Origin: Escherichia phage vB_EcoP_PAS61
Sequence record: OQ921333.1
DNA length: 39,287 nucleotides
Direction: 5' to 3' (one strand)
The first letter of the stretch is position 1. Every line of letters begins with the position of its first letter. Under the pieces are notes generated by a model, which was given only the letters and a program-made list of their open reading frames with translations, made no database searches and was not told where the DNA came from. Of the stretch, positions 5,864 through 37,879 are shown piece after piece. The translations under genes were made by a program, and so were the position numbers.

Positions 5864-6448
5864 TTATTGTTTGTTTTTTTCGTTCTGGTTGATGACAAAT
5901 TCAATGTAACTTTCGATCTTTGCTTTCTCGGTTTCGGGTAACAATGCGTAGCGCGAGCGATCATAGTTGATGGTCGCAGGGTCGTGCGGGTGAATCAGTA
6001 ATTCATAGCCGTGACGCCCGAATGCGGATGCAACATTCTCCAGGGTGGAAATGGAAACGCTGACCTCATTGTTTAACAGGCGGCTGATTGTCACCTGGGC
6101 TACGCCGGATGCGCGGTGAAGTTTTCCCTGTGTTGAAAGGTCGCGGCTTTCGCTCATCCAGCGTTCCAGGTTGTGAGCCGCCAGCTGGCCAATGTCGCTT
6201 GGGCCGACAGGCTGAAAACCTTCCTGAGAAAGCGAGCGATCGATATCAAGCCAGTTACGGGGTTTATTGGCGGCAGCTTCAATTTTTCGCGCAACCTGGT
6301 CGCCGATAACCTTCTTGCCAAGAGCCCAGCGGTTTACCAGATTTGCCTGAGTTCCAAGTTTTTCTGCCATCCGCGTCTGAACACCATTGAATTCACGGTC
6401 GATCAAGTCGTTGAGATTTTGCCTGCGGACGTCCTGGATACTTTTCAT
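5864..6448 (-). CDS. Putative prophage repressor (CI-like role) with two helix-turn-helix regions; no obvious LexA-like S24 peptidase domain
   Basis: 194 aa; HTH-like segments GVQTRMAEKLGTQANLVNRW and GKLHRASGVAQVTISRLLNNE; divergent from a Cro-like gene across an operator-rich intergenic region. Confidence 0.55.
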   Translation of the reverse strand: MKSIQDVRRQNLNDLIDREFNGVQTRMAEKLGTQANLVNRWALGKKVIGDQVARKIEAAANKPRNWLDIDRSLSQEGFQPVGPSDIGQLAAHNLERWMSESRDLSTQGKLHRASGVAQVTISRLLNNEVSVSISTLENVASAFGRHGYELLIHPHDPATINYDRSRYALLPETEKAKIESYIEFVINQNEKNKQ

Positions 6449-6503
6449 TTTCTGGAAAATCGCCTCATATATGAATCGGTAGATGATTCAATTTAAAGCA
6501 ATA

Positions 6504-6590
6504 TTACCCAACAGGTAAATGCACCCCATAGGTAACTATCCTTGATTTTTGTTACCTTATGGGTGAATATTTATTATCTGAAATAAATAT
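6504..6590. promoter_or_regulatory. Divergent immunity promoter/operator region (oR-like): TTACCCAACAGGTAA (6504-6518), inverted GGTAAC/GTTACC half-sites (6524-6566), TTGATT -35-like hexamer (6542-6547), AT-rich palindrome TATTTATT-N6-AATAAATA (6568-6589)
   Basis: Motifs read directly from sequence between the repressor (-) and Cro-like (+) genes. Confidence 0.5.
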
Positions 6591-6602
6591 CAGGCAATAG
6601 CT

Positions 6603-6833
6603 ATGAGCGATAACGGACATTTCGATTTCAAAAAGCACTGGCTTGCACTTACTCCGGATGAGCGTGAAGCCTTCGCACAGGAAGCCGGAACGACGAGTCA
6701 CTATATCCAGACTCACTTAACAGGTAAGCGCAAAATGCCAGGTAAAGTATTGATGAATGGGCTTTTTAAAGCCTGTAAATCAAGACAATGGTTGCGCTCA
6801 AAAGCAGAACTGGCATACTTCTTCTACTCATGA
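6603..6833 (+). CDS. Putative Cro-like early regulator (position-based call)
   Basis: 76 aa ORF transcribed divergently from the repressor immediately after the operator region; weak HTH-like segment. Confidence 0.4.
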   Translation: MSDNGHFDFKKHWLALTPDEREAFAQEAGTTSHYIQTHLTGKRKMPGKVLMNGLFKACKSRQWLRSKAELAYFFYS

Positions 6834-6983
6834 TATCCAGCCACAACCCTCTGTAGACCGCCATCCGGCGGTCTTTTCATATCTATTCGCACCTCAAAGG
6901 TAATAAAAAACCAAATCTGGTTGATCTTTTTTTTGTGTCAGCACAAAATAACCGTAATCCCAATACTAATAACAGGGCTTACC

Positions 6984-7184
6984 ATGGAAATCATTACACG
7001 TATTGATGCCGCAAAGCGCGGACTTAAACGCTACTACACCGGAAAACCATGTAAGCACGGACATGACAGTGAACGCTGGGTTTACAACGGACACTGTGTT
7101 GAGTGCACCATGGAATCAAACCGTCGCATCAGGGCAGAGATTAAGCAGATCATGATTAATTCCTCCCCACAACATTCAAGCTGA
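6984..7184 (+). CDS. Small zinc-ribbon protein (CxxH...CxxC), possible early regulator
   Basis: GKPCKHGH...NGHCVEC motif; start moved to MEIITRID ATG. Confidence 0.45.
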   Translation: MEIITRIDAAKRGLKRYYTGKPCKHGHDSERWVYNGHCVECTMESNRRIRAEIKQIMINSSPQHSS

Positions 7185-7199
7185 TAGCGGAGATTAATC

Positions 7200-8015
7200 A
7201 TGAGCAGACATGCAACAGATTGGGCCTGGGAGACAGATCCAGGTAGCTCGTCATTAAAGCTCATACTGCTCTCGATGGCTGACAGAGCCGATGAATATAA
7301 CCTCTGCTACCCCAGCATAGAACGCCTCGTTAAAGACACCTGCTTGAATAAAAAAACCGTACAGGCCGGGCTTATATCGCTCATGAAAATGGGGCTTATT
7401 TCAGATACCGGAGAGAGAAAGGGAGCGACGAAAAGAGTGCGGGTTTTCTCTCTTAATATAACCAAAAAAGGGAACATTAAAGGCAACCTAGATGGGTGTA
7501 ATGAACCCGAAAACGGTAATGTTCCCAAAAACGGGAATATACCCAAAAACGGGATGTTGAATGATCCCAAAAACGGGATGTTGAATGATCCCAAAAACGG
7601 GATCCAGAACCAGTCATATAACCAGTCATTTAACCAAGAGAGGGAGAGCAGGACAAAAACCGGGGATTCTGTGCCTCATGACCCCGGCGCAAACAACGCC
7701 GTGATGAATAACTTTGTTCCTCCTGGTGGGCCAGGGCAATTAGGCAAATTTGTCATGCATGAACAATGGCAGCCATCAGATGACTTTCTTCGGAAAAGCT
7801 CATTGCAGGGAATCTACCTGGACAGTCTGCCAACGGCACAGGAACTTGCAGAGTTCAGAATTTACTGGATGGCTGAGGGTAAGGCATACCATCAGGCACA
7901 GTGGGAGCAGAAGCTGGCAAGGCGGCTGCAGATTAGCAGACAGAAGCAATCAACATTACCTGATAACAACGTTCCGCACTGGAACAGCCCTGAAGCATGG
8001 GAGGATTTCTTGTGA
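7200..8015 (+). CDS. Replication initiator (lambda O-like role) with N-terminal HTH domain; contains origin iterons
   Basis: 271 aa; N-terminal HTH-like region; internal PKNG repeat encoded by DNA iterons; directly coupled to a lambda P-like gene. Confidence 0.65.
   Translation: MSRHATDWAWETDPGSSSLKLILLSMADRADEYNLCYPSIERLVKDTCLNKKTVQAGLISLMKMGLISDTGERKGATKRVRVFSLNITKKGNIKGNLDGCNEPENGNVPKNGNIPKNGMLNDPKNGMLNDPKNGIQNQSYNQSFNQERESRTKTGDSVPHDPGANNAVMNNFVPPGGPGQLGKFVMHEQWQPSDDFLRKSSLQGIYLDSLPTAQELAEFRIYWMAEGKAYHQAQWEQKLARRLQISRQKQSTLPDNNVPHWNSPEAWEDFL
7506..7602. repeat. Putative origin of replication: five iterons CCC(A/G)AAAACGG(G/T)A spaced 18-24 bp, including a perfect 24-bp tandem repeat (7551-7574 / 7575-7598)
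   Basis: Direct repeats at 7506, 7524, 7542, 7566, 7590 read from sequence; location inside the initiator gene as in lambda ori. Confidence 0.7.
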
Positions 8016-8797
8016 ACAACGTTTTTACCGCGATACAAAACCGTGACGGAGAAGCCCTTTCTCGCATGTCAGGTTATGAGCATCAGTACACCAACAATGA
8101 CAACGTGGTGAACATGTCAGCAGAGAGGCTTGTTGATGCCCTTTTCAAACAGCTGAAACAACTGTTTCCGGCGGCAGTGGTAACCAACCTGAAGACGCCA
8201 GAGCAGGAAGTTGCTGCAAAACAGCAGTGGATTGCTGCGTTTGCCGAAGGGGGGATCCGAACCCGTGAACAGGTTTCTGCTGGTATGCGCCACGCCCGCG
8301 CCAGTGAATCTCCGTTCTGGCCGTCGCCAGGGCAATTTATCAAGTGGTGTAAAGACAGCAAGATGGTTCTTGGCGTCACCATTGACGATGTGATGGCGGA
8401 GTTTCATCGGTACAGCAAGGAAAAAAGTTTATATCCTGGTGGTCCCGAAAGATTCCCGTGGCGGCATCCGGTTATGTACTGGGTCGTATGTGATACCCGC
8501 CGTGCAATGTATCAGCGCCAGCTTAGCGAGATTGAAGTTGAGAAACACGCGCGCAGGCTGCTCGATGATTGGGCGAAAAAGGTGGCTTCCGGACAGCAGA
8601 TACCCGATCCGGTGATCAGCATACAGGCAAAGCCAGAGCCCATGAGTACACCTCCGGACACAGGGAGAGACGTTTACCATCCACCAGGGCGAAGTTTCGG
8701 GTGCATGCCTAACGCCGCCACCCTTGGGGGAATAACACCGGCGCAGTGGCTGATGGAGGAATACAGGCGGGGAAAGGCGGCAGGATTTATCAAGTAA
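8012..8797 (+). CDS. Replication protein P-like (helicase loader)
   Basis: Similarity from memory to lambda P (FPA...Q.EV...QW..AF.E.GI.T.EQV.AGMR.AR....PF.PSPGQF..WC); GTG start overlapping upstream stop (GTGA) with GGAGG RBS. Confidence 0.75.
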   Translation: MNNVFTAIQNRDGEALSRMSGYEHQYTNNDNVVNMSAERLVDALFKQLKQLFPAAVVTNLKTPEQEVAAKQQWIAAFAEGGIRTREQVSAGMRHARASESPFWPSPGQFIKWCKDSKMVLGVTIDDVMAEFHRYSKEKSLYPGGPERFPWRHPVMYWVVCDTRRAMYQRQLSEIEVEKHARRLLDDWAKKVASGQQIPDPVISIQAKPEPMSTPPDTGRDVYHPPGRSFGCMPNAATLGGITPAQWLMEEYRRGKAAGFIK

Positions 8798-8834
8798 TAC
8801 CAGCGCGATAGCGCATTTTTTTACGCCTCAACAA

Positions 8835-8911
8835 TTACCTATAAGGTAACAAAATATTCTAAACTCTATTGATTTCGTGTCTTATGTGGTTTTTAATTAC
8901 CTTAGAGGTAA
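8835..8911 (+). promoter_or_regulatory. Promoter/operator region: TTACCTATAAGGTAA (8835-8849), -35 TTGATT (8869-8874), spacer containing TTATGTGGTT, -10 TTTAAT (8892-8897), TTACCTTAGAGGTAA (8897-8911) overlapping the RBS of the downstream gene
   Basis: Motifs read directly. Confidence 0.45.
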
Positions 8912-8914
8912 ATC

Positions 8915-9262
8915 ATGAGAAAACAGATACAGGCTCTTGGTCGACTCAAAACAGGCCAGATGAACAAAACAGAATCTGCGTATTGCCAGCACCTTGAGCA
9001 GCGTAAACGTGCAGGGGAAATCGCCTGGTATCGATTCGAGGGTATCAAGCTGCGGTTAGCTGACAACACGTTCTATACGCCCGATTTCGCTGTGATGCTC
9101 GCCACCGGAGAGATGGAACTGCACGAAGTGAAAGGGGGATTCTGGACCGACGACGCCAGGGTGAAAACCAAAGTAGCCGCAGATCAGTATCCGTTCCGAA
9201 TCATCGGGGTAACGGTTAAACCAAAGAAAGCAGGTGGCGGCTGGAACATCGAAGAGTTCTGA
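8915..9262 (+). CDS. DUF1064-like phage protein (possible nuclease/resolvase-like)
   Basis: 115 aa; YCQHLEQRKRAGEI..YRFEG..L....FYTPDF pattern recalled as DUF1064. Confidence 0.5.
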   Translation: MRKQIQALGRLKTGQMNKTESAYCQHLEQRKRAGEIAWYRFEGIKLRLADNTFYTPDFAVMLATGEMELHEVKGGFWTDDARVKTKVAADQYPFRIIGVTVKPKKAGGGWNIEEF

Positions 9263-9323
9263 ATCGACGATCTTTTTAGTTATCAATGTAATCAATAAGT
9301 TATGTGGATAAGCGAGGGTAAAG

Positions 9324-9971
9324 ATGGAAAGTAATATCAAAGGGTTAGTTGCCGCCGGGCATGAGATGGCTTCGGAACTGAAAGCAGAATGTGGTGCCGT
9401 TGATATGCGCAGTATGGCAAAGCTGATCAGCGATTTGGCAACGCAACTGGAAGTGCAACTGGTGCGTGCTAATGCGCTGGCCGAAGACCAGCAGAAAGCG
9501 ATTGAGTCAATTAAGCAGGCTGATTCAACTGTTAAGTTGGCGCACGAGAAGTTTTCGGCGCTTGCGGCGGAGAATGAACTGGCTCGTAAGGCAGTTAAGG
9601 CATTCTGCGATGTTGTTGGCGACAACACCGAGGTTATCGCTGAGGAGGTTGGGCGAGATGGCGTTCTGGTTATTTTGAAGGCCATGAAGGCAACAGGAAA
9701 TATGTCAGCCACCGACGCTTTCCTGGCTGAAATTCGTGCGGAAGCACGCAACGAGGGGATTAACTATACCGCCAGCCGTCTTGCTGCTGCGTTCAATCAC
9801 GGATTTATCAATAAGTCTTTGCGTGAAGTTTTCGACGTTACACGCATGATTTTGTCAGCGAAAGAAGAGTTGGCTAATGAAGCGCATCCGATTGATGGCC
9901 TGTCTGGTGAATATGCGGAGAAATCCCTTGAAGAATGGGCGGAACAGATTCGCAAAGGAGGCAGCCAGTGA
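9324..9971 (+). CDS. Hypothetical protein
   Basis: 215 aa ORF, Ala/Glu-rich, no recognised motif. Confidence 0.5.
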   Translation: MESNIKGLVAAGHEMASELKAECGAVDMRSMAKLISDLATQLEVQLVRANALAEDQQKAIESIKQADSTVKLAHEKFSALAAENELARKAVKAFCDVVGDNTEVIAEEVGRDGVLVILKAMKATGNMSATDAFLAEIRAEARNEGINYTASRLAAAFNHGFINKSLREVFDVTRMILSAKEELANEAHPIDGLSGEYAEKSLEEWAEQIRKGGSQ

Positions 9972-15211: not shown

Positions 15212-15288
15212 TGGCGTGGCATGCAGGATTCGAACCTGCGACCAACCGCTTAGAAGGCGGTTGCTCTGTCCGACTGAGCTAATGCCAC
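15212..15288 (-). tRNA. tRNA-Arg (anticodon UCU), phage-encoded
   Basis: Hand-folded cloverleaf: acceptor GTGGCAT/ATGCCAC, D-stem GCTC/GAGC, anticodon stem ACCGC/GCGGT with loop CTTCTAA, T-arm GCAGG-TTCGAAT-CCTGC, discriminator G and encoded CCA. Confidence 0.85.
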
Positions 15289-30041: not shown

Positions 30042-32516
30042 ATGAGACAGGAATGTATACAAGCGGTCCAGCAGGCGGCGCAGCGCACGTTAACGGCGCG
30101 AGAAATACAGAACATTGAAGACCGCATTTATCGAAATATGCGCTCCATTGCTCGTGATGACCCGATGTCGTGGAGACAACTTTCCGAATCAGAGCGGCTA
30201 TATCGTGCAGCACAATTGGCATCTGAAGAATTACAGCGAGAAGCGGCATTAAAGAAACGTCGTGTGGCCCTCACTATAGCCGCACGTCAGAGATTGGATA
30301 AATTTATCAATAGCTATCAAGGGGCTGATGGGAAACTTGGCGCTCTTAACCGTACTATTGCTTTTAATGCAGACGGTAAATCGAATTTCCTCTCTGTTGA
30401 GTCCAGAACAAAAGCCACTCGTGATTATGCATTGAGTCAATTGCAGGAGGCATTCGAAGCAGTTGATCCTCGCTTTTTTGTTCTGTTTGAAGATGAAGCG
30501 GGCGTACGTGACCTGGTATATGAAATGCGAGGGCAAAATACTGGCAATGCTAAAGCAAGAAAAGGTGCTAAGGCGTGGAGAGAAGTGACAGATCTACTGC
30601 GCCGCCGGTTTAATGATGCTGGTGGGGACATTGGCTATCTCGAAAACTGGGGGATCCCTCAACATCATTCTATGGAAAAGGTTGGGGCGGTATCAAAGGA
30701 TAAGTGGGTTAGCGATGTTATAGGTAAGCTGGATCGCAAATATTATATCCGAGCCGATGGACAACTGATGAACGATGCCGAGTTGTCTGCATTTCTTGGA
30801 GAGGCTTATAACACGATCGCTACTGGTGGGCTGAATAAGCTTACTGATACCGGAATGCGAATTTCCGGCGCACGTGCTAACCGTGGTAATGCATCACGAC
30901 AGATACATTTCAAAGATGCAGATTCCTATCTGCAATATCAGCAACTTTATGGCGATCGCTCTCTATGGGAAATCATAGTCGGTCACCTGGAAGGTATCAG
31001 TAAAGATATTGCACTGGTGGAAACATATGGCCCAAACCCCGATCATGTTTTCCGCTCTCTTCTTGATCAGGTTAAGGCAGAAACGGCAACTGCTAACCAG
31101 AGTAAAACCGGTAAAGTCGAGCGGCTGGCGAACAACACAGAGAATCTGTACAACTTTATTTCCGGAAAGACACAGCCTGTAGCGAATCCGCACATCGCGC
31201 GATGGTCTGACAATATCCGCAACTGGCTGGTTGCCAGCAGACTCGGATCCGCGTTGCTGTCATCGTTCTCTGATCTTGGAACCATGTATCTGTCTGCGAA
31301 GGTTACCAACCTTCCAATGAACCAGTTATTCCGCAACCAGCTTGAAGCTATGGACCCAACGAACCGTACAGAACTTGCGCGGGCGCGCCGCGCTGGTCTG
31401 GCGATGGAATCTCTACTTGGCAGCGTTAACCGCTGGGCGATGGATAATATGGGGCCGTCAGTGTCTCGTTGGGCGGCAACGGCGGTAATGCGTGCCAGTG
31501 GGCTTACAGCATGGTCAGATGCGCACAAGCGCGCCTATGGCGTAACCATGATGGGAAGCCTGGGAGAAGTAGTGTCACGGACACCAGACCTTCGTAGCCT
31601 CGATGACTCTGATTTTCGTATCCTGAAAAGCAAAGGGATTACTGACACAGACTGGAGCGTATGGAAGTTGGCGCAACAGGAGGACTGGGGGAACGGTAAT
31701 AATACGATGCTGACACCGGAAAGCATTATGCGTATCCCTGATTCAGCAGTTAAACATCTTGGTGAGCCTGAACGCGTGAAATTTGAGGCAATGCGTAAAC
31801 TGCTCGGTGCCGTAACTGAAGAAGTTGATATGGCTGTTATTACACCGGGAGCACGTGAGCAACTGATAACCGGTTCTGGTATTCAGCGTGGAACATGGAA
31901 AGGTGAATTAACGAGAAGTGTTTTCCTGTTTAAATCGTTCCCTATCTCGGTTGTTATGCGTCACTGGTCACGCGCTATGGGTATGCCGTCTGCTGGTGGG
32001 CGTGCGGCATATATTGCGACGTTTATTGCCAGTACGACCATTCTTGGCGCTTTGTCGCAGCAACTTAACGACCTTGCGTCTGGTCGTAATCCTCGAGAGA
32101 TGACAGGAGAAGATGCCGCAAAATTCTGGCTTGGTGCTCTACTGAAAGGTGGTGGTCTTGGCCTTTACGGTGACTTTTTATTGTCAGATCACACTAGGTA
32201 CGGAAGCGGCGCGCTGGCATCGATGCTTGGCCCGGTAGCTGGTCTGGTTGATGACGTAGTGAAGATTGCTCAGGGCATACCGTTAAATGCTGTGGAAGGG
32301 AAGAATGAGCAGACTGGTGGTGATCTGGTTAAGCTGGGGAAAGGTCTGATGCCAGGTGCGAATCTCTGGTACTTAAAGGCGGCTCTCGATCACATGATCT
32401 TTAACCAGATGCAGGAGTATTTTTCACCAGGTTATTTGCGTAAAATGGAGCAACGTTCGAAGAAAGAGTTTAACCAGACATACTGGTGGCGACCACAGGA
32501 TGTCACTCCGCAATAA
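30042..32516 (+). CDS. Internal virion/DNA-ejection protein
   Basis: 824 aa; last gene of the injection block, followed by terminator. Confidence 0.55.
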   Translation: MRQECIQAVQQAAQRTLTAREIQNIEDRIYRNMRSIARDDPMSWRQLSESERLYRAAQLASEELQREAALKKRRVALTIAARQRLDKFINSYQGADGKLGALNRTIAFNADGKSNFLSVESRTKATRDYALSQLQEAFEAVDPRFFVLFEDEAGVRDLVYEMRGQNTGNAKARKGAKAWREVTDLLRRRFNDAGGDIGYLENWGIPQHHSMEKVGAVSKDKWVSDVIGKLDRKYYIRADGQLMNDAELSAFLGEAYNTIATGGLNKLTDTGMRISGARANRGNASRQIHFKDADSYLQYQQLYGDRSLWEIIVGHLEGISKDIALVETYGPNPDHVFRSLLDQVKAETATANQSKTGKVERLANNTENLYNFISGKTQPVANPHIARWSDNIRNWLVASRLGSALLSSFSDLGTMYLSAKVTNLPMNQLFRNQLEAMDPTNRTELARARRAGLAMESLLGSVNRWAMDNMGPSVSRWAATAVMRASGLTAWSDAHKRAYGVTMMGSLGEVVSRTPDLRSLDDSDFRILKSKGITDTDWSVWKLAQQEDWGNGNNTMLTPESIMRIPDSAVKHLGEPERVKFEAMRKLLGAVTEEVDMAVITPGAREQLITGSGIQRGTWKGELTRSVFLFKSFPISVVMRHWSRAMGMPSAGGRAAYIATFIASTTILGALSQQLNDLASGRNPREMTGEDAAKFWLGALLKGGGLGLYGDFLLSDHTRYGSGALASMLGPVAGLVDDVVKIAQGIPLNAVEGKNEQTGGDLVKLGKGLMPGANLWYLKAALDHMIFNQMQEYFSPGYLRKMEQRSKKEFNQTYWWRPQDVTPQ

Positions 32517-32525
32517 GGATGAGAA

Positions 32526-32666
32526 ATGATTGCTTTTATTCTTGTTGTGTTTGCGCTTGTTGCACTTGGCGTTATGAACCGTAAATGTATCATTGACGAT
32601 GGCGAATTTGCTGTTGCAGTTATTTTGATATTATCTGGTGTAGCAGGGTACATAGGCTTGTCATAA
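32526..32666 (+). CDS. Small hydrophobic membrane peptide (46 aa)
   Basis: Hand translation MIAFILVVFALVALGVMNRKCIIDDGEFAVAVILILSGVAGYIGLS; AAGGA RBS 6 nt upstream; below ORF-track cutoff. Confidence 0.4.
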   Translation: MIAFILVVFALVALGVMNRKCIIDDGEFAVAVILILSGVAGYIGLS

Positions 32667-32686
32667 CGTGAGCGTGACATGTCACA

Positions 32687-32712
32687 GGCCGCTTTCGCGG
32701 CCTTTAAATTTA
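32687..32712 (+). terminator. Rho-independent terminator (GGCCGC-TTTC-GCGGCC + U-rich tail) ending the injection operon
   Basis: Perfect 6-bp GC stem plus U-run; GTGACATGTCAC palindrome directly upstream. Confidence 0.6.
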
Positions 32713-32967
32713 CCGGGTTTGTTTTCGTAATTGTTCGGCACAATAGTCGAGATGTGTTTGCAGATCCTGCATAGACATCTGTGAGCTGGTGACGTAGTTA
32801 ATCAGTGCAGTCAGTTCGGCAAGTGGGCCATCGACATTAAATCCATCCTTATCGAGATCCCGGAGTAATTTCATCAAGTGCGATCCATCCACCAGTGACC
32901 TGACGCCTCCCGGCGTGTGAATCCTTTCGGTAAATCCGTCTTCCAGTGGATAGTGATACTGCTGCAT
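32710..32967 (-). CDS. Moron gene of unknown function (85 aa) with its own promoter/operator
   Basis: Start moved to internal ATG (MQQYHYPLEDG) with GGAG RBS; upstream 41 codons of the track ORF run through AT-rich regulatory sequence. Confidence 0.5.
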   Translation of the reverse strand: MQQYHYPLEDGFTERIHTPGGVRSLVDGSHLMKLLRDLDKDGFNVDGPLAELTALINYVTSSQMSMQDLQTHLDYCAEQLRKQTR

Positions 32968-33004
32968 CTTATCTTCTCCATGCAATAACTGTATATTTAT
33001 ACAG

Positions 33005-33098
33005 TAGCAAATAATTTGTTTGCTATCCAGCACGTTTTGCAAATTACCAGAAAGGTAATATCTATTCTTATTCACAGTCTTTCTATCCATATGTGGTT
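33005..33098. promoter_or_regulatory. Regulatory region between moron and tailspike: perfect palindrome TAGCAAA-N7-TTTGCTA (33005-33025), TTACCAGAAAGGTAA (33044-33058), CATATGTGGTT (33088-33098)
   Basis: Motifs read directly. Confidence 0.45.
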
Positions 33099-33162
33099 TT
33101 TCAGGTAATAGAATAACTAGATATGCGGCGCAACGGGTGCTGCGACTATCTGGAGATTTAAC

Positions 33163-35400
33163 ATGACGGTCTCAACCGAAGTTGACCACAACGAATACAC
33201 AGGTAACGGCGTTACAACATCATTTCCGTATACCTTTAGGGTTTTCAAGGAATCTGATCTGGTAGTACAGGTGGTTGACTTGAACGAGAATATCACTGTG
33301 CTGGTTCTTGATACTGATTACACAGTTACAGGGGCTGGAGGATATAACGGCGGCAATGTAATTCTGTCGAAGGCGTTGGCTAACGGTTATCAGATTTCTA
33401 TATCACGAGAGCTGCCGGTTACGCAGGAAACAGATCTACGCAATCAAGGCAAGTTCTTTGCAGAGGTGCATGAGGATGCGTTTGATAAGCTAACGATGTT
33501 GATCCAGCAGGTTAGAAGTTGGTTTAGCTTGGCGCTTCGCAAGCCGTCATTCGTGGCAAACTATTATGATGCGCTTAACAATTACATCAGAAATTTGCGT
33601 GACCCGTTACTTCCGCAGGATGCTGCAACAAAGAATTATGCTGATGAGCTTAGCGCAAATAACACGTCACACACTGATTTTCTCTTTAGCAGAACGCTGA
33701 GAACTGCGGAAGAAATACCACAACTACCTTCCATTGAGTTCAGAAGAAACAAAATCATCGGGATGGATAACGATGGCAATCCGATAATGCTTGTTCCTGA
33801 GTCAGGATCAGCTTCTGATGTTTTAATTGAGTTGGCAAAACCAACTGGTGCTTCATACATAGGGATCCCTAAAGGAGGGTTTCTATCAGACGTTTTATAC
33901 TATTCCACCCCTAAAGAATTCGGTGGGGTTGGCGATGGTATTACTGATGATACGGCAGCGATTGTTGCAGCAGTAAATACCGGATTGCCATTGGTCTTAT
34001 GTGGTGGTAAATGGCGGATAACATCCACTATAGAGCTTCCTGATTGTTATGCAGTGGACGCAAGATGTTCTCACATTATAGCTGATACCGGTTTTCAGCC
34101 TGTTTTTTTATTTAAGGGAAAAAACTATGGGCTTCATTATGCTGGTGGTCTTGTAACAGGAACCGCCAGTTCATTCATGTATATTGAAGGTGAGACTGAC
34201 GTTCCTACGACCAGTAACCAATATGCAAAATTGGTTGAGTTGTATGGTGTGAATATTTCTTCAAAAACCATTATAACCTCACTGATAATGAAAAAAGCAG
34301 TTCGGCAGATATTTATTGATTCATGTTTTTTCTACTCTAAAAATGGCATTGAAGCAGAGGGAAAAACAGTTGAGATTACAATTGACAAATCAATAATATA
34401 CGGTTCAACAGCAGACACTGACAGTTTTGGCATCAAGCTTTCTAGCACAGGTGGAACCAGGTTTTACAACGAAGGATGGCATATTTCAGATTCTACTATT
34501 GATAACTTTGCTAACACGCTTGATTTGGCTGATATATTTGTATTTACAGTTAGTAAAGGTTATGTTGCATGCAATGCGACAACGGCATATGCTGTTACTA
34601 TCAGACCACCAACCACAACAACGCATACTCGAGAAATTCAATTTGATGGTGTTCTTGGCGGAAAAATTAGATTTCTTGATACAGTTTCTGGTCAGACAAT
34701 ATTTCACACAAAAATTTCTGGTGAGATTACAAACTGCAAACAGGGAACTTGTCTTTCCATAGGAGCAAATGCCGCAGGAATTGATATTAGAAGCCTGAGA
34801 GTTACTTCCTCACCTGGATGTACATTATCATCAGTAGCAAATGGATCAGCAAACATTAATTATTCTGATATTTCTACTGATTCATCTTTGGCTGCAGGTA
34901 TTATCTTCAATGGTGAAGCAGGTGGTAATTGCTCAATATCAGACTACCTGTACTCAGGGACTGGAGAGGCGTTATCACTTGCTAGGCCGGTTAAGCTTTC
35001 CAATGTTCCTACAGTTGGTAGCGAAACTTTGAATTGGTCTATAAAGTACGATTATGTATCTGCATCAAAAGATGTCGCAGTTGGAGCATACATAAACCAA
35101 CTTCAAATGACTATTGCAAGATATAGTAAGATAGAGATCAATATAAATCTTTCATATTCTGGGGGCGCAGAGAGCAATGCCCAGGCAATTGGAATAACAG
35201 CTCCTACTGGAGTGGTTCTGCCAAATGGTACAAACTCGATGCTGTTCACATTACCAGCAACGGCGGGATCATTGACTATGAGCATTGTTGCTACAACAAC
35301 GCTAGACTTCAAGAACCTGTCATTCAGCATCGATAACAGAGCTGGTAACCAACTGCGGATTTTGGCCGGTTCCCACTTGTCTGTATCGCTGGCTAACTGA
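33163..35400 (+). CDS. Tailspike protein: T7 gp17-like N-terminal adaptor domain plus beta-helix (pectate-lyase-like) receptor-binding/depolymerase body
   Basis: 745 aa; N-terminus TGNGVTTSFPYTFRVF...DTDYTV; GGVGDGITDDTAAI motif typical of right-handed beta-helix tailspikes; AT-rich. Confidence 0.75.
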   Translation: MTVSTEVDHNEYTGNGVTTSFPYTFRVFKESDLVVQVVDLNENITVLVLDTDYTVTGAGGYNGGNVILSKALANGYQISISRELPVTQETDLRNQGKFFAEVHEDAFDKLTMLIQQVRSWFSLALRKPSFVANYYDALNNYIRNLRDPLLPQDAATKNYADELSANNTSHTDFLFSRTLRTAEEIPQLPSIEFRRNKIIGMDNDGNPIMLVPESGSASDVLIELAKPTGASYIGIPKGGFLSDVLYYSTPKEFGGVGDGITDDTAAIVAAVNTGLPLVLCGGKWRITSTIELPDCYAVDARCSHIIADTGFQPVFLFKGKNYGLHYAGGLVTGTASSFMYIEGETDVPTTSNQYAKLVELYGVNISSKTIITSLIMKKAVRQIFIDSCFFYSKNGIEAEGKTVEITIDKSIIYGSTADTDSFGIKLSSTGGTRFYNEGWHISDSTIDNFANTLDLADIFVFTVSKGYVACNATTAYAVTIRPPTTTTHTREIQFDGVLGGKIRFLDTVSGQTIFHTKISGEITNCKQGTCLSIGANAAGIDIRSLRVTSSPGCTLSSVANGSANINYSDISTDSSLAAGIIFNGEAGGNCSISDYLYSGTGEALSLARPVKLSNVPTVGSETLNWSIKYDYVSASKDVAVGAYINQLQMTIARYSKIEININLSYSGGAESNAQAIGITAPTGVVLPNGTNSMLFTLPATAGSLTMSIVATTTLDFKNLSFSIDNRAGNQLRILAGSHLSVSLAN

Positions 35401-35507
35401 TGATGTTATGACATGGATGTCAAATGATTCAGCGTATGAAATGGAATGGTAGTCGCTTTCGTGCTATAACCTGCTGATTCGTTTACTGAGCAGACTTGAA
35501 CATTGTA

Positions 35508-37364
35508 ATGAAAGTTAATAACTTCAGATATGACATTAACGGATTAAGGGCATTAGCAGTTATCTCTGTTGTTGCTTATCATTTTTCTGCAGACTTCCTT
35601 CCTGGTGGATTTGTCGGTGTTGATGTATTTTTTGTCATATCCGGGTTTTTGATGACCTCAATTATTTTTAGAGGAATTAGCAATAATAACTTTTCTGTCT
35701 TTAATTTCCTGAAAGCCAGAGCGAAAAGGATAGTCCCTGCGCTAACATTTGTTGTTGGTTTGGTGCTGATCGGCGGATATCTTTGTTTTGATGCTATGTC
35801 ATATAAAATAGCTGGAGACCATGCGCTTTCAAGCCTGCTATTCTACTCTAATTATTTTTACGAGGCTGAAGCTGGGTACTTTGATGCTGAATCAAAAGCA
35901 AAGGTTCTTCTTCATACCTGGTCACTATCTGTTGAGTGGCAGTTTTATATAATATATCCGATTGTCTTGTTTTTCCTGAGCAAGGTAATTTCATTAAAGC
36001 AGTTAAAGATATTTATACTGGTGCTTGCCATAGCATCTTTTTCTTATTGCGTGTATGTGACAAAAGTAAACCCCATATCGTCTTACTTCATGATATATAG
36101 TAGGGCTTGGGAAATGATGCTCGGTGGCATCGCTTTTCTATACCCATTAAATGTTAATGAAAATAAGCGAAGATACATTGAATTCATTGGGCTGGCACTC
36201 ATAGTTGTTTCAATGATGGCAATTGATGATAAAACACCGTGGCCTGGAAAGATGGCGCTAATACCTGTCCTTGGTGCCTATCTTGTCATTCTTGCAAAAA
36301 GCAATAACACAATCCTGTCTGGAGAATTAATAAATAGACTAGGGCTGTGGTCTTATTCAATATATCTTATTCATTGGCCTGTGCTTGTTTTTTCACATAA
36401 AATGAACGTGGATTTACCATTTATATGGTATTTTTCATTTGTATTGATATTCTCATTTATAACATATGAGATAATTGAAAAAAGAAGAAGTTACGGAAGG
36501 GGTGCTGTTTTTGTTTTCATCATGGCTGTAGCAGCGTCGTGGTACGTTGGAATAGATGGTGTTGCTGACAGGATTAATAATCAGGAATACAAAATATCAA
36601 AACCGCAATTCAGGGCAAAATACGAAGGTCACCTTGGCATTCATTCAACAGAGGAAGTTAAGTATTTCAACAGTAATGAAAATAACTTTGAATACATCCT
36701 TATTGGTGATAGCCATGCCAGACACTACTATGCCTACATTCAGGATTCAGGTGCTAAGGTTGCATCGTTCGCAGTTGATGGGTGTGAGGTAACAAAGCAC
36801 TTTATGAGTCCCATTGGATGGTCAGAGAAGACAAGAGCTATGTGTGCCAGCAGGTATAAAAAAGCCGTTGACTTCATTAACTCACATCCAGGAAAGCCGG
36901 TTATATGGTCCATGCTATGGAGGGGTGGCGTGATCGGTGAGCCAATAAACGATGGTGAAACAAATCCAAACGACATTATCAGTGAGATGGCATTCTTCCT
37001 GGAAGACATCAAATCCTCTGGTTCTTCGCTATTTATTATTGGAGACACTCAGGGCAGTGACAGAATTATGTTCGAGTGTCTTGCAGGGCAAGATCTGCCA
37101 ATCAATAAGATACTTAATCGCTGTGAAACGACTCAGAAGGAAAAGAAATTCCCTATAAGTGAACGGTTTAAAGAATTTGCATCGAAGCACAGCAATGTTC
37201 ATTTTATCGATCCTACGCCAGCGTTATGCCGCGATGGTGAGTGCGTGATTGTTTATGATGGTATGCCTGTATATACCGATAACGATCACTTTACTAAACA
37301 ATGGTCTATTAATGTCGGTTCATTCATTTTCAATAAAATCAGAGAAACTCAACATACTGATTAA
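35508..37364 (+). CDS. Acyltransferase-3 family membrane O-acetyltransferase with C-terminal SGNH domain (OafA/Oac-like; likely O-antigen acetylation)
   Basis: RYDINGLRALAV..VV.YHF N-terminus typical of acyltransferase 3; multiple TM segments; C-terminal GDSHA SGNH motif; alternative TTG start at 35496. Confidence 0.85.
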   Translation: MKVNNFRYDINGLRALAVISVVAYHFSADFLPGGFVGVDVFFVISGFLMTSIIFRGISNNNFSVFNFLKARAKRIVPALTFVVGLVLIGGYLCFDAMSYKIAGDHALSSLLFYSNYFYEAEAGYFDAESKAKVLLHTWSLSVEWQFYIIYPIVLFFLSKVISLKQLKIFILVLAIASFSYCVYVTKVNPISSYFMIYSRAWEMMLGGIAFLYPLNVNENKRRYIEFIGLALIVVSMMAIDDKTPWPGKMALIPVLGAYLVILAKSNNTILSGELINRLGLWSYSIYLIHWPVLVFSHKMNVDLPFIWYFSFVLIFSFITYEIIEKRRSYGRGAVFVFIMAVAASWYVGIDGVADRINNQEYKISKPQFRAKYEGHLGIHSTEEVKYFNSNENNFEYILIGDSHARHYYAYIQDSGAKVASFAVDGCEVTKHFMSPIGWSEKTRAMCASRYKKAVDFINSHPGKPVIWSMLWRGGVIGEPINDGETNPNDIISEMAFFLEDIKSSGSSLFIIGDTQGSDRIMFECLAGQDLPINKILNRCETTQKEKKFPISERFKEFASKHSNVHFIDPTPALCRDGECVIVYDGMPVYTDNDHFTKQWSINVGSFIFNKIRETQHTD

Positions 37365-37465
37365 GATCCCTCCGTTATTTGGTATCTAGGTAACATGTAA
37401 CCACATATGGTTTATAGTGTATGATGAACTCACCAACTAAGGGGGTTCTTCATGCACATTAAACG

Positions 37466-37879
37466 GTGGTCGTTATGTCAGCCGGGCTAACCAGTGAGTC
37501 TTTAAATCAGTGGCTTAGCATGGGTTCGCTTGCTGCGGTAATCGCAGGAGTTCCGCCAGAGGTGGCGCTCGGCGCTCTGGCGGGTGCGGTAATTTTTGTT
37601 ACCTCGGCAGTCGAATACCCGATCCGCCGCCGGGTTCTCCTGTCGGTGCTCAGCTTCTTCTGCGGCCTTCTCTTCTACAAACCCACAGCAACATTCCTCA
37701 TCGGATTAGCTTCCTCTTTCCCTGGCATCACCACAGATATGTTTGAGAAAGGGGTTGCGTACTCAGCCGGCGCTTTCGTGTCAGCAATCGTCGCAGTGCG
37801 CATTGGCATCTGGCTTTATCACCGTTCCGACAATCCACGCGAGTTAATCCCGGGGAGAAAAGACGATGGTAACGCATGA
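37466..37879 (+). CDS. Holin-like membrane protein
   Basis: 137 aa with several hydrophobic helices, first gene of lysis cassette; GTG start (alternative ATG at 37475). Confidence 0.55.
   Translation: MVVMSAGLTSESLNQWLSMGSLAAVIAGVPPEVALGALAGAVIFVTSAVEYPIRRRVLLSVLSFFCGLLFYKPTATFLIGLASSFPGITTDMFEKGVAYSAGAFVSAIVAVRIGIWLYHRSDNPRELIPGRKDDGNA

Follow-up and report, generated by a model that had tools for sequence, protein, structure and literature searches.

A tailspike and predicted O-antigen acyltransferase in phage vB_EcoP_PAS61 form part of a cassette shared by unrelated temperate phages

Expression of the phiV10 oac gene alone modifies the O-antigen and abolishes both binding and plaque formation by phiV10 (PMC11854483). 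In the P22-like phage BTP1, the family II GtrC protein, which is OafB, confers protection against BTP1 and its tailspike by acetylating the rhamnose of the O-antigen, and Salmonella oafB genes carry signatures of Dam/OxyR phase variation upstream (PMC9558356). O-antigen acetylation by Oac (OacA) of Shigella phage Sf6 sterically blocks the phage's own endorhamnosidase tailspike; Sf6 Oac is an AT3-only enzyme encoded, as the title of a reference cited in this source indicates, beside the integrase gene rather than right behind the tailspike (PMC9558356). Tailspike modules are also swapped between phage genera, receptor-binding domains being placed onto genus-specific anchors (Pas et al. 2023, PMC10408124).

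The window analyzed here comprises all 39,287 nt of the genome of vB_EcoP_PAS61, a published temperate phage of the genus Uetakevirus with E. coli O146:H21 as its host. The paper describing this phage reports haloed plaques on O146:H21 and a host range restricted to O146, and it has been suggested that the phage and its tailspike could serve as tools specific for O146. The region 33163–37364 contains only two long open reading frames, 33163–35400 and 35496/35508–37364, both on the plus strand, which encode the tailspike and an acyltransferase; the gene order is tailspike, acyltransferase, holin, holin and endolysin, as in phiV10 and TL-2011b. We consider it probable that this region is a host-range and lysogenic-conversion module, in which the acyltransferase masks the O-antigen receptor of the tailspike. 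The module is an ordinary one of a type already known: behind a tailspike that cuts the receptor comes a membrane enzyme, which most likely acetylates the same sugar coat and thereby makes the lysogen resistant to reinfection.

The GC content of the region is 0.400 (40.0%), compared with a mean of 0.499 (sd 0.011, minimum 0.474) for same-length windows elsewhere in the genome (n = 580), and the region thus lies ∼9 sd under the genome mean. GC content is 0.451 in the tailspike anchor (aa 1–170), 0.403 in the C-terminal part of the tailspike, 0.382 in the acyltransferase gene and 0.363 in its AT3 half, versus 0.496 in the left backbone and 0.526 in the lysis genes on the right. The dip has a sharp right edge at ∼37400, and its left onset is at ∼32300–32500, before the tailspike gene starts. 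A sequence-only reading of this DNA had judged by eye that the tailspike, and especially the acyltransferase gene, are more AT-rich than the structural genes to their left, and had suggested a GC window analysis; the computed values bear out both impressions and show that the composition is not uniform.

The tailspike gene (33163–35400, plus strand) encodes a 745-aa protein, which is identical to the vB_EcoP_PAS61 tailspike and matches the tail protein family phrog_1640 (E 2.4e-147). Its AlphaFold model (aa ∼250–745, pLDDT mostly 85–95) resembles the tailspikes of Sf6, CBA120 (TSP2–4) and HK620, and the receptor-binding domain is modelled as a right-handed beta-helix like those of glycosidase tailspikes. 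The N-terminal anchor domain (33163–33795, GC 0.44–0.45) is specific to the Uetakevirus backbone, being 92% identical in amino acids to the phiV10 and TL-2011b anchors and 33% identical to that of the Citrobacter podophage. It is followed by a linker motif, PESGSASDVLIELAKPTGASYIG (33796–33870, aa 212–236), which recurs in tailspikes whose receptor-binding domains are unrelated (phiV10, TL-2011b) and in those with other anchor types; in the published paper, the receptor-binding domain begins at aa 216. The receptor-binding beta-helix domain (33796–35400, plus strand, GC 0.402) belongs to an O146-type family, homologues of which occur on four different anchors. The seven proposed acidic active-site residues (E404, E437, D447, E491, E521, D541 and D573) are kept or conservatively replaced in 11 homologues, and the domain is under purifying selection (dN/dS 0.06–0.20). 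Distant homologues of the domain are found without an acyltransferase in a lytic SU10-like phage and a P22-like prophage.

The downstream gene (35508–37364, plus strand) encodes a 618-aa AT3-SGNH acyltransferase, a predicted O-antigen O-acetyltransferase. Residues 12–322 match Acyl_transf_3 (PF01757; E 1.9e-31, 109.7 bits, cut-off 31), residues 397–602 match SGNH (PF19040; E 2.5e-26, 93.3 bits, cut-off 27), and the protein falls into phrog_6705, an 'O-antigen acetylase' of the moron category (E 3.1e-148). Two groups of motifs are invariant in 73 homologues. The first comprises R14-x10-H25 in the first transmembrane helix and R71-A-K-R74 (RXXR) in the first cytoplasmic loop, R/K-X10-H and RXXR being essential residues of the AT3 family (PMC9558356); the second comprises the SGNH blocks I (G400-D-S402) and V (D591-N-D-H594), which align with GDS and DxxH of BTP1 GtrC/OafB. 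A search of the PDB by sequence alone gave no match, and the top Foldseek PDB match of the structural model (pLDDT 91.4) is 6SE1, the SGNH domain of OafB (E 3.1e-6, target TM 0.60). The topology was compared with an arrangement in which ten helices make up AT3 and an eleventh transmembrane helix puts SGNH outside the cytoplasm. The model has 12 helices of at least 15 residues ahead of residue 351, the last of which (330–350) runs straight into the SGNH domain, and the hydropathy peaks are compatible with this model, the helix count and topology being approximate. Selection on the gene is purifying (dN/dS 0.05–0.19, ∼0.1). With the full set of family motifs present, the protein is assigned by sequence to the OafA/OafB type of AT3-SGNH enzymes, and the proposal that an Oac/OafA-like acetyltransferase gene adjoins the receptor-binding protein gene is upheld by Pfam, motifs, PHROG and the model.

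The start at ATG 35508 is backed by database gene calls and by the N-termini of 72 homologues (consensus MxxKxFRxDINGLRA), both of which disfavour the alternative TTG 35496 (622 aa). Anti-Shine-Dalgarno pairing is −1.9 kcal/mol ahead of either codon, compared with a median of −2.4 for random ATGs of the PAS61 genome and −5.8 to −8.1 for neighbouring phage genes. Both candidates are therefore at the random-ATG background, as expected from the earlier remark that neither has a strong ribosome-binding site.

By comparison with other phages, the receptor-binding domain and the acyltransferase gene are parts of a larger cassette (33796–37347, plus strand). This block is shared with a Citrobacter amalonaticus prophage (L005, positions 6289–9840) over 3,552 bp with no indels and 89.6% identity. 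A siphovirus-type prophage (L048) and two Uetakevirus copies (L012 and L051) have these three parts in the same order, again with a gap of 107 nt, so that Escherichia and Citrobacter together harbour the cassette in three temperate backbones unrelated to one another. The left recombination junction is at the linker motif, the block shared with L005 beginning at 33796, and homology to phiV10 and TL-2011b ends within the tailspike gene at ∼33646–33848. The right junction (37348–37398) extends from the last five acyltransferase codons, the L005 block ending at 37347, to the return of phiV10/TL-2011b homology at 37398. Sequence comparison therefore indicates a new feature of such modules, in that a strongly conserved spacer of 107 bases moves between unrelated E. 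coli and Citrobacter phages as a unit with the receptor-binding domain and the acyltransferase gene that flank it. Between PAS61 and L051, the acyltransferases are 99% identical and the receptor-binding domains 73% identical; these incongruent histories imply that the pairing of the two is not strictly clonal.

These breakpoints and the block shared with an unrelated Citrobacter prophage substantiate the horizontal exchange proposed in the sequence-only reading, but its dating of the acquisition as recent, which was drawn from AT-richness, does not hold. The GC content of the cassette is ∼0.39–0.41 whatever the backbone (0.49 to 0.565), and tailspike receptor-binding domains and AT3 genes have GC contents of 0.30–0.42 in phiV10, TL-2011b, BTP1 and a P22-like prophage. 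AT-richness is therefore no evidence for recent acquisition, since comparable genes are AT-rich in all of these phages. The closest cassette copy in another backbone has already diverged by 10%.

The 107-nt intergenic spacer (35401–35507, plus strand) is under constraint. The five copies have no indels and 97 of 107 invariant sites, compared with 394 of 613 third-codon sites in the acyltransferase gene (binomial P 3.5e-10), and the PAS61 spacer is identical to that of the Citrobacter prophage at 107/107 positions. In sequence searches, the spacer occurs only together with the cassette. It contains a palindrome, TGACAT-GG-ATGTCA (35409–35422), a candidate protein-binding site that is invariant in all copies and present once per cassette locus, an exact second copy being absent from the phage. 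Further downstream is an extended −10-like element, TGcTATAAC (35462–35470, plus strand), a candidate promoter read from the sequence; it is invariant but weak, with C at position 6, and was passed over by a consensus promoter scan that needs T at this position. The spacer is most likely a control region of the acyltransferase gene, which would let expression proceed independently of the phage backbone.

It is possible, although we think it doubtful, that the conservation of the spacer is not regulatory and reflects either recent gene conversion or a homologous-recombination linker that shuffles alleles of the receptor-binding domain and the acyltransferase. The incongruent relationships of these two parts would fit this, as would the conserved island, which does not stop at the spacer but also covers the last ∼180 nt of the tailspike gene, and a stretch of 173 nt within the acyltransferase coding sequence over which PAS61 and L005 likewise have no mismatch. 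A canonical sigma-70 promoter scan of the spacer found none, an Rfam search of it gave no match and its RNA fold has z = −0.39, all of which agrees with a non-regulatory origin. However, the spacer ranks first or close to first in conservation in 9 of 10 pairwise comparisons, including pairs with acyltransferase dS of 0.4–0.7, and it is free of indels in every copy. Its variable sites are gathered in one 25-nt patch with an invariant block on either side, a pattern suggestive of functional elements at both ends of a tolerant linker. Taking the spacer as a control region, it may be speculated, tentatively, that the whole is a self-contained cassette to recognize a receptor and then mask it, which carries a backbone-independent control element (the spacer with its invariant palindrome and −10-like site). 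Selection would act on this cassette as one entity, its jumps between podovirus and siphovirus prophages would cross enterobacterial genera, and lysogenic conversion would be under the control of the spacer as a novel regulatory element.

PAS61-type phages exist as prophages in E. coli, where they adjoin yfgI-pdeF-ppx-ppk and are 100% identical across the compared 6.5–9.3 kb. An identical acyltransferase is carried by ∼470 public contigs, E. coli O146 being the name of some members of the cluster; among 5,426 complete E. coli genomes, no cassette copies were found. The proposed mechanism would begin with the beta-helix glycosidase tailspike binding and cutting the E. coli O146 O-antigen to start infection. 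The gene directly downstream would supply an acyltransferase located in the inner membrane, an AT3-SGNH enzyme of the OafA/OafB type. By analogy with this family, acetyl would be taken from cytoplasmic acetyl-CoA and brought through the membrane by the AT3 domain of the enzyme, and its periplasmic SGNH domain (Ser402/Asp591/His594) would then attach it to a hydroxyl group in the O-antigen repeat unit. O-antigen acetylation by the PAS61 enzyme is, on this analogy, the most likely activity. The modified O-antigen would escape binding and cleavage by this class of tailspikes, so that the lysogen would be seroconverted and superinfection-proof, and the receptor-binding domain, spacer and acyltransferase gene would travel jointly between unrelated temperate phages. 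The gene has the orientation of the late tailspike gene, and scans found no terminator, canonical sigma-70 promoter or Shine-Dalgarno site between the two, which counts against the lysogenic-conversion reading; expression of the acyltransferase in the lysogen is therefore a presumption.

The same arrangement would suit a late lytic gene expressed by read-through from the tailspike gene, whose product would act on O-antigen freshly exported by the infected cell, so that released virions would not be lost to debris or to cells already infected. The acyltransferase gene lies on the same strand as the tailspike and lysis genes, scans show no terminator-like site in 35401–35507 or 37365–37465, and the gene is co-directional with the tailspike in five of five cassette copies, in contrast to the phiV10 and Tyrion acyltransferase genes, which need independent transcription because they are on the opposite strand. 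We nevertheless regard this role as improbable as the main one, given that the gene is kept intact at dN/dS ∼0.1 in hundreds of prophage copies, that constraint on the spacer is comparable to that on coding sequence, although read-through by itself would call for no such constraint, and that characterized homologues act in lysogens. Late lytic and lysogenic-conversion roles can coexist. Acylation of another envelope glycan (enterobacterial common antigen, capsule or colanic acid, peptidoglycan or core) for host fitness or immune evasion, with the tailspike receptor irrelevant, is very improbable: AT3 and AT3-SGNH substrates are diverse and include peptidoglycan (PMC9558356), the sole NCBIfam match is a far sub-threshold mycobacterial acetyltransferase model, and an O-acetyl group on O146 is undocumented in the literature found, a review of O antigens noting for O146 lactyl-substituted glucose only, but the acyltransferase is repeatedly tied to one family of O-antigen-type receptor-binding domains in three unrelated backbones, its nearest relatives of known function by structure and sequence are O-antigen acetyltransferases, and the equivalent slot of phiV10 holds a proven O-antigen modifier.

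Under the lysogenic-conversion reading, a receptor-binding domain and a receptor-masking enzyme held in one cassette would account for the continued match of host range with superinfection immunity despite phage recombination, and the cassette supplies a compact, conserved non-coding element as a candidate for regulation. O146 is a common non-O157 serogroup of Shiga-toxin-producing E. coli. Should the O146 antigen be acetylated by this enzyme, lysogens of the PAS61 type would be resistant to the phage and to reagents based on its tailspike, and their typing with sera might give a different result; the PAS61 paper is silent on such resistance and does not mention the acyltransferase gene.

Compared with the described systems, the PAS61 acyltransferase resembles phiV10 Oac in genus (Uetakevirus), AT3 superfamily, position in the tailspike-to-holin slot and low GC content (0.31 for phiV10 oac). 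However, phiV10 Oac is a 338-aa, AT3-only protein encoded on the opposite strand, whereas the PAS61 enzyme has 618 aa, AT3 and SGNH domains and a gene co-directional with the tailspike. Similarity between the two is undetectable (BLASTP best E = 2.1), and orthology was rejected on this basis; with the TL-2011b O-acetyltransferase, identity is 25% in the AT3 domain only. The phiV10-like arrangement suggested previously thus stands for slot position and enzyme class and fails for sequence homology, and the two genes are, by their sequences, non-orthologous replacements in one slot, which acyltransferases occupy in other Uetakevirus-type contigs too. The two-domain architecture is shared with BTP1 GtrC/OafB and Salmonella OafA/OafB. 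BTP1 GtrC/OafB is 31% identical to the PAS61 enzyme over the full length, with R-x10-H, GDS and DxxH aligned, and its gene also adjoins the tailspike gene but is convergent with it. There are no GATC sites between 35268 and 35767, so the PAS61 spacer has none, in contrast to the Dam/OxyR signatures upstream of Salmonella oafB; phase-variable regulation of the gtrC/oafB kind was rejected for lack of these sites upstream of the acyltransferase gene. The closest homologue in a sequenced phage is the predicted acyltransferase of Enterobacter phage Tyrion (48% identity over 99% of the length), which occupies the same slot in a Uetakevirus-like backbone but is encoded on the strand opposite to the tailspike, next to another receptor-binding domain and without the PAS61 spacer. 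In the literature on tailspike exchange, no description was found of an exchange unit that includes a spacer and a modification gene. The exchange described by Pas et al. (2023) concerns the receptor-binding domain, whereas the PAS61 unit is larger and adds both the spacer and the modification gene.

The sequence-only reading had placed a tailspike and an Oac/OafA-like acetyltransferase at 33163-37364; these coordinates are exact, and domain content, intact motifs and modelled folds agree with both identifications. The first ~160 residues of the tailspike (gene at 33163-35400) are 92% identical to the anchors of phiV10 and TL-2011b, and DNA homology to these two phages stops within the gene, at 33646-33848. 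The AlphaFold model is confident over residues ~250-745 (pLDDT mostly 85-95) and matches the beta-helix depolymerase tailspikes of Sf6, CBA120 (TSP2-4) and HK620, the same resemblance that was described by the PAS61 authors (PMC11522302). The seven acidic residues of their proposed active site are conserved throughout the tailspike family.

The acyltransferase (35508-37364) possesses the Pfam domains Acyl_transf_3 and AT3-fused SGNH, and is matched over its full length by phrog_6705 ('O-antigen acetylase', E 3e-148). The AT3 motifs listed as essential in a review (PMC9558356) are present (R14-x10-H25, R71xxR74, GDS with S402, and D591xxH594) and are invariant in an alignment of 73 sequences, as are four cysteines of the SGNH domain. 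A sequence search of the PDB returned no matches, therefore a fold search was used; the model (pLDDT 91.4) has as its top solved-structure match the periplasmic domain of OafB, an O-antigen acetyltransferase from Salmonella (6SE1). GtrC/OafB of the P22-like phage BTP1, which acetylates O-antigen rhamnose and guards against the BTP1 tailspike (PMC9558356), aligns full-length at 31% identity. A scan of species-representative genomes for the origin of the gene found relatives with at most 54% identity. The dN/dS ratio is 0.05-0.19, and thus the gene is functional. Split or shortened versions occur in some E. coli isolates (P0129, P0131, P0133; 142 and 493 aa on one contig, or 427 aa), so that the gene is occasionally inactive in lysogens. 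The lack of a strong RBS noted at first holds for both candidate starts (TTG 35496, ATG 35508), neither of which has a Shine-Dalgarno sequence: anti-SD pairing is -1.9 kcal/mol for each, compared with a median of -2.4 for random ATGs and -5.8 to -8.1 for neighbouring genes. Database gene calls and homologue N-termini back ATG 35508.

The low GC content perceived by eye was borne out by computation: the module has a GC of 0.400, whereas same-size windows elsewhere average 0.499 (sd 0.011, minimum 0.474). The acyltransferase gene is, as claimed, especially AT-rich (0.382); the tailspike has a GC of 0.403 in its receptor-binding part and 0.451 in its N-terminal anchor. The dip has a sharp right edge near 37400; its left onset is already at ~32300-32500, and 32526-33162 is of low GC too. 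Upstream of the tailspike gene there is a terminator-like hairpin (32686-32703), and PAS61 lacks the Bro-N antirepressor and adjoining small genes found in phiV10 and TL-2011b between a 46-aa membrane-protein gene and an 85-aa gene upstream of the tailspike. The proposal that AT-richness marks recent acquisition is rejected, as low GC is a general trait of such genes: every comparator has AT-rich receptor-binding domains and AT3 genes (0.417 and 0.309 in phiV10, 0.414 and 0.302 in TL-2011b, 0.405 and 0.356 in BTP1), and a P22-like tailspike has a GC of 0.381. Since, in addition, the PAS61-type cassette keeps a GC of 0.39-0.41 in backbones of 0.49, 0.51 and 0.565, low GC is the mark of an exchangeable gene pool.

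The real evidence of horizontal exchange is mosaicism, not GC. The receptor-binding domain, a 107-nt spacer and the acyltransferase gene (33796-37347) form a 3,552-bp block that aligns without indels and at 89.6% identity with a prophage of Citrobacter amalonaticus (L005), the backbone of which is unrelated: it has an SLT protein, a different holin and lysozyme, and a terminase of T7 type that shares 77% identity with Yersinia phages YeP4-6, and none of its proteins matches PAS61. This arrangement of three parts, again with precisely 107 nt in the gap, recurs in a siphovirus-type Citrobacter prophage (L048), which carries a tape measure and the tailspike anchor PF18668, and in further Uetakevirus copies: L051 of Escherichia marmotae and L012/L058 of a metagenome. 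Citrobacter farmeri is also among the carriers. More remote homologues of the receptor-binding domain, in an SU10-like lytic phage (57%) and in an E. coli prophage of P22-like type (49%), have no acyltransferase beside them. At the left junction stands a linker motif, PESGSASDVLIELAKPTGASYIG, common even to tailspikes with unrelated receptor-binding domains, and the right junction falls within the final five codons of the acyltransferase gene.

The receptor-binding domain and acyltransferase have incongruent histories, being 73% and 99% identical, respectively, between PAS61 and the E. marmotae copy, and 92% and 86% between PAS61 and L005. Therefore recombination has occurred inside the cassette, and still the two families remain paired. 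The tailspike 3' end (35220-35400, last ~180 nt) is 82-90% invariant among cassette copies, like the acyltransferase gene, compared with about 50-65% for the remaining receptor-binding domain; breakpoints thus lie upstream of ~35220.

The conserved island, which starts about 180 nt 5' of the tailspike stop codon, continues through the spacer (35401-35507). Among five distinct copies the spacer has no indels and 97 of its 107 sites are invariant, compared with 84% of sites in the acyltransferase gene, 64% at its third-codon positions (binomial P 3.5e-10 against the spacer) and 51% in the receptor-binding domain. The spacers of PAS61 and L005 are identical (107/107), while dS of the acyltransferase in this pair is 0.24-0.56. 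Variable sites are grouped at 35430-35454, flanked on the 5' side by an invariant block with the palindrome TGACATGGATGTCA (35409-35422) and on the 3' side by an almost invariant block with a -10-like element, TGcTATAAC (35462-35470). We infer that the spacer acts at the DNA level to control the acyltransferase gene. It may otherwise be a recombination linker. The spacer was found only together with this cassette and does not precede the more distant homologues of the acyltransferase gene; its pattern is absent from species-representative genomes and present on one metagenome contig, of the L012 type.

A 17-codon ORF, MIQRMKWNGSRFRAITC (35424-35477, + strand), is open in all five cassette copies, overlaps the -10-like element and may have a leader-ORF role; as a conserved peptide it is unsupported, since every substitution is non-synonymous. 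A 14-codon ORF (35408-35452) is disrupted at the start or stop codon in three copies. Neither a canonical sigma-70 promoter nor a terminator was found in the spacer, and a promoter-like site at 35245-35272 has a non-conserved -10 hexamer. A structured RNA is rejected, given that Rfam gave no match up to E 5 and that the folding energy does not beat that of shuffled sequences (z = -0.39). Phase variation of the Dam/OxyR kind known from Salmonella oafB and a reused phage operator are likewise rejected, as the spacer has no GATC and the genome no second exact copy of the palindrome.

Beyond the module, ATG 37475 is the probable start of the Phage_holin_8-type gene (37466-37879, + strand): it gives the 134-aa protein called in the identical prophage, and its anti-SD pairing is -5.8 kcal/mol versus +1.7 for GTG 37466. 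Just upstream of the holin genes, 37398-37465 is conserved in phiV10, TL-2011b and about 60 E. coli genomes, and a promoter-like GTAACA-17-TATAGT (37390-37418) is a candidate lysis-gene promoter.

The 39,287-bp window is the whole genome of PAS61, and its tailspike has an exact UniProt entry under the name of this phage. PAS61 is a temperate Uetakevirus from cattle faeces, isolated on E. coli O146:H21 (host strain A11-1675), with phiV10 and phiv142-3 as nearest relatives; its published description makes no mention of the acyltransferase gene (PMC11522302). The genome also contains a tRNA-Arg (anticodon TCT; 15212-15288, - strand; ARAGORN; Rfam tRNA, 73 bits). Chromosomal prophages of E. coli match PAS61 at 100% identity over the 6.5-9.3 kb compared, neighbour yfgI-yfgH-yfgG-pdeF-ppx-ppk, and have their right end ~1.9 kb from the module. 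A search with 33600-37450 found the cassette in 0 of 5,426 complete E. coli genomes, and finished genomes seem to be without carriers; the exact acyltransferase is present on about 470 draft-assembly contigs.

Lysogenic conversion, in which the O146 antigen is O-acetylated and the receptor of the adjacent tailspike masked, is the most likely role of the module. What the analysis shows is the identity of the genes, their fold, linkage and selection, an intact catalytic machinery and the prophage state; the substrate, expression in lysogens and exclusion are what we infer. Its main weaknesses are that no promoter was identified and that the acyltransferase is co-oriented with the late genes.

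The likeness to phiV10 proposed at the outset stands for the slot between tailspike and holin, and fails for its occupant. The phiV10 oac, which expressed alone modifies O157 and stops binding and plaque formation (PMC11854483), lies on the opposite strand and encodes an AT3-only protein of 338 aa without detectable similarity to the PAS61 enzyme (E = 2.1), which rules out orthology. The TL-2011b slot gene is on the same strand and also AT3-only (368 aa; 25% identity). Several further Uetakevirus-type contigs have an acyltransferase in this slot, in either orientation, among them Enterobacter phage Tyrion, the closest phage homologue (48%). Another instance of an acyltransferase adjoining a tailspike is seen in Enterobacter kobei (L007, 1-4336), where a 64%-identical AT3-SGNH gene is convergent with an 809-aa beta-helix tailspike with a different receptor-binding domain, in a backbone with the same T7-type terminase as L005. 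The module is of a known kind, in a published phage, and the finding as first written is ordinary; the portable cassette of receptor-binding domain, spacer and acyltransferase, together with the constrained spacer, are modestly interesting additions.
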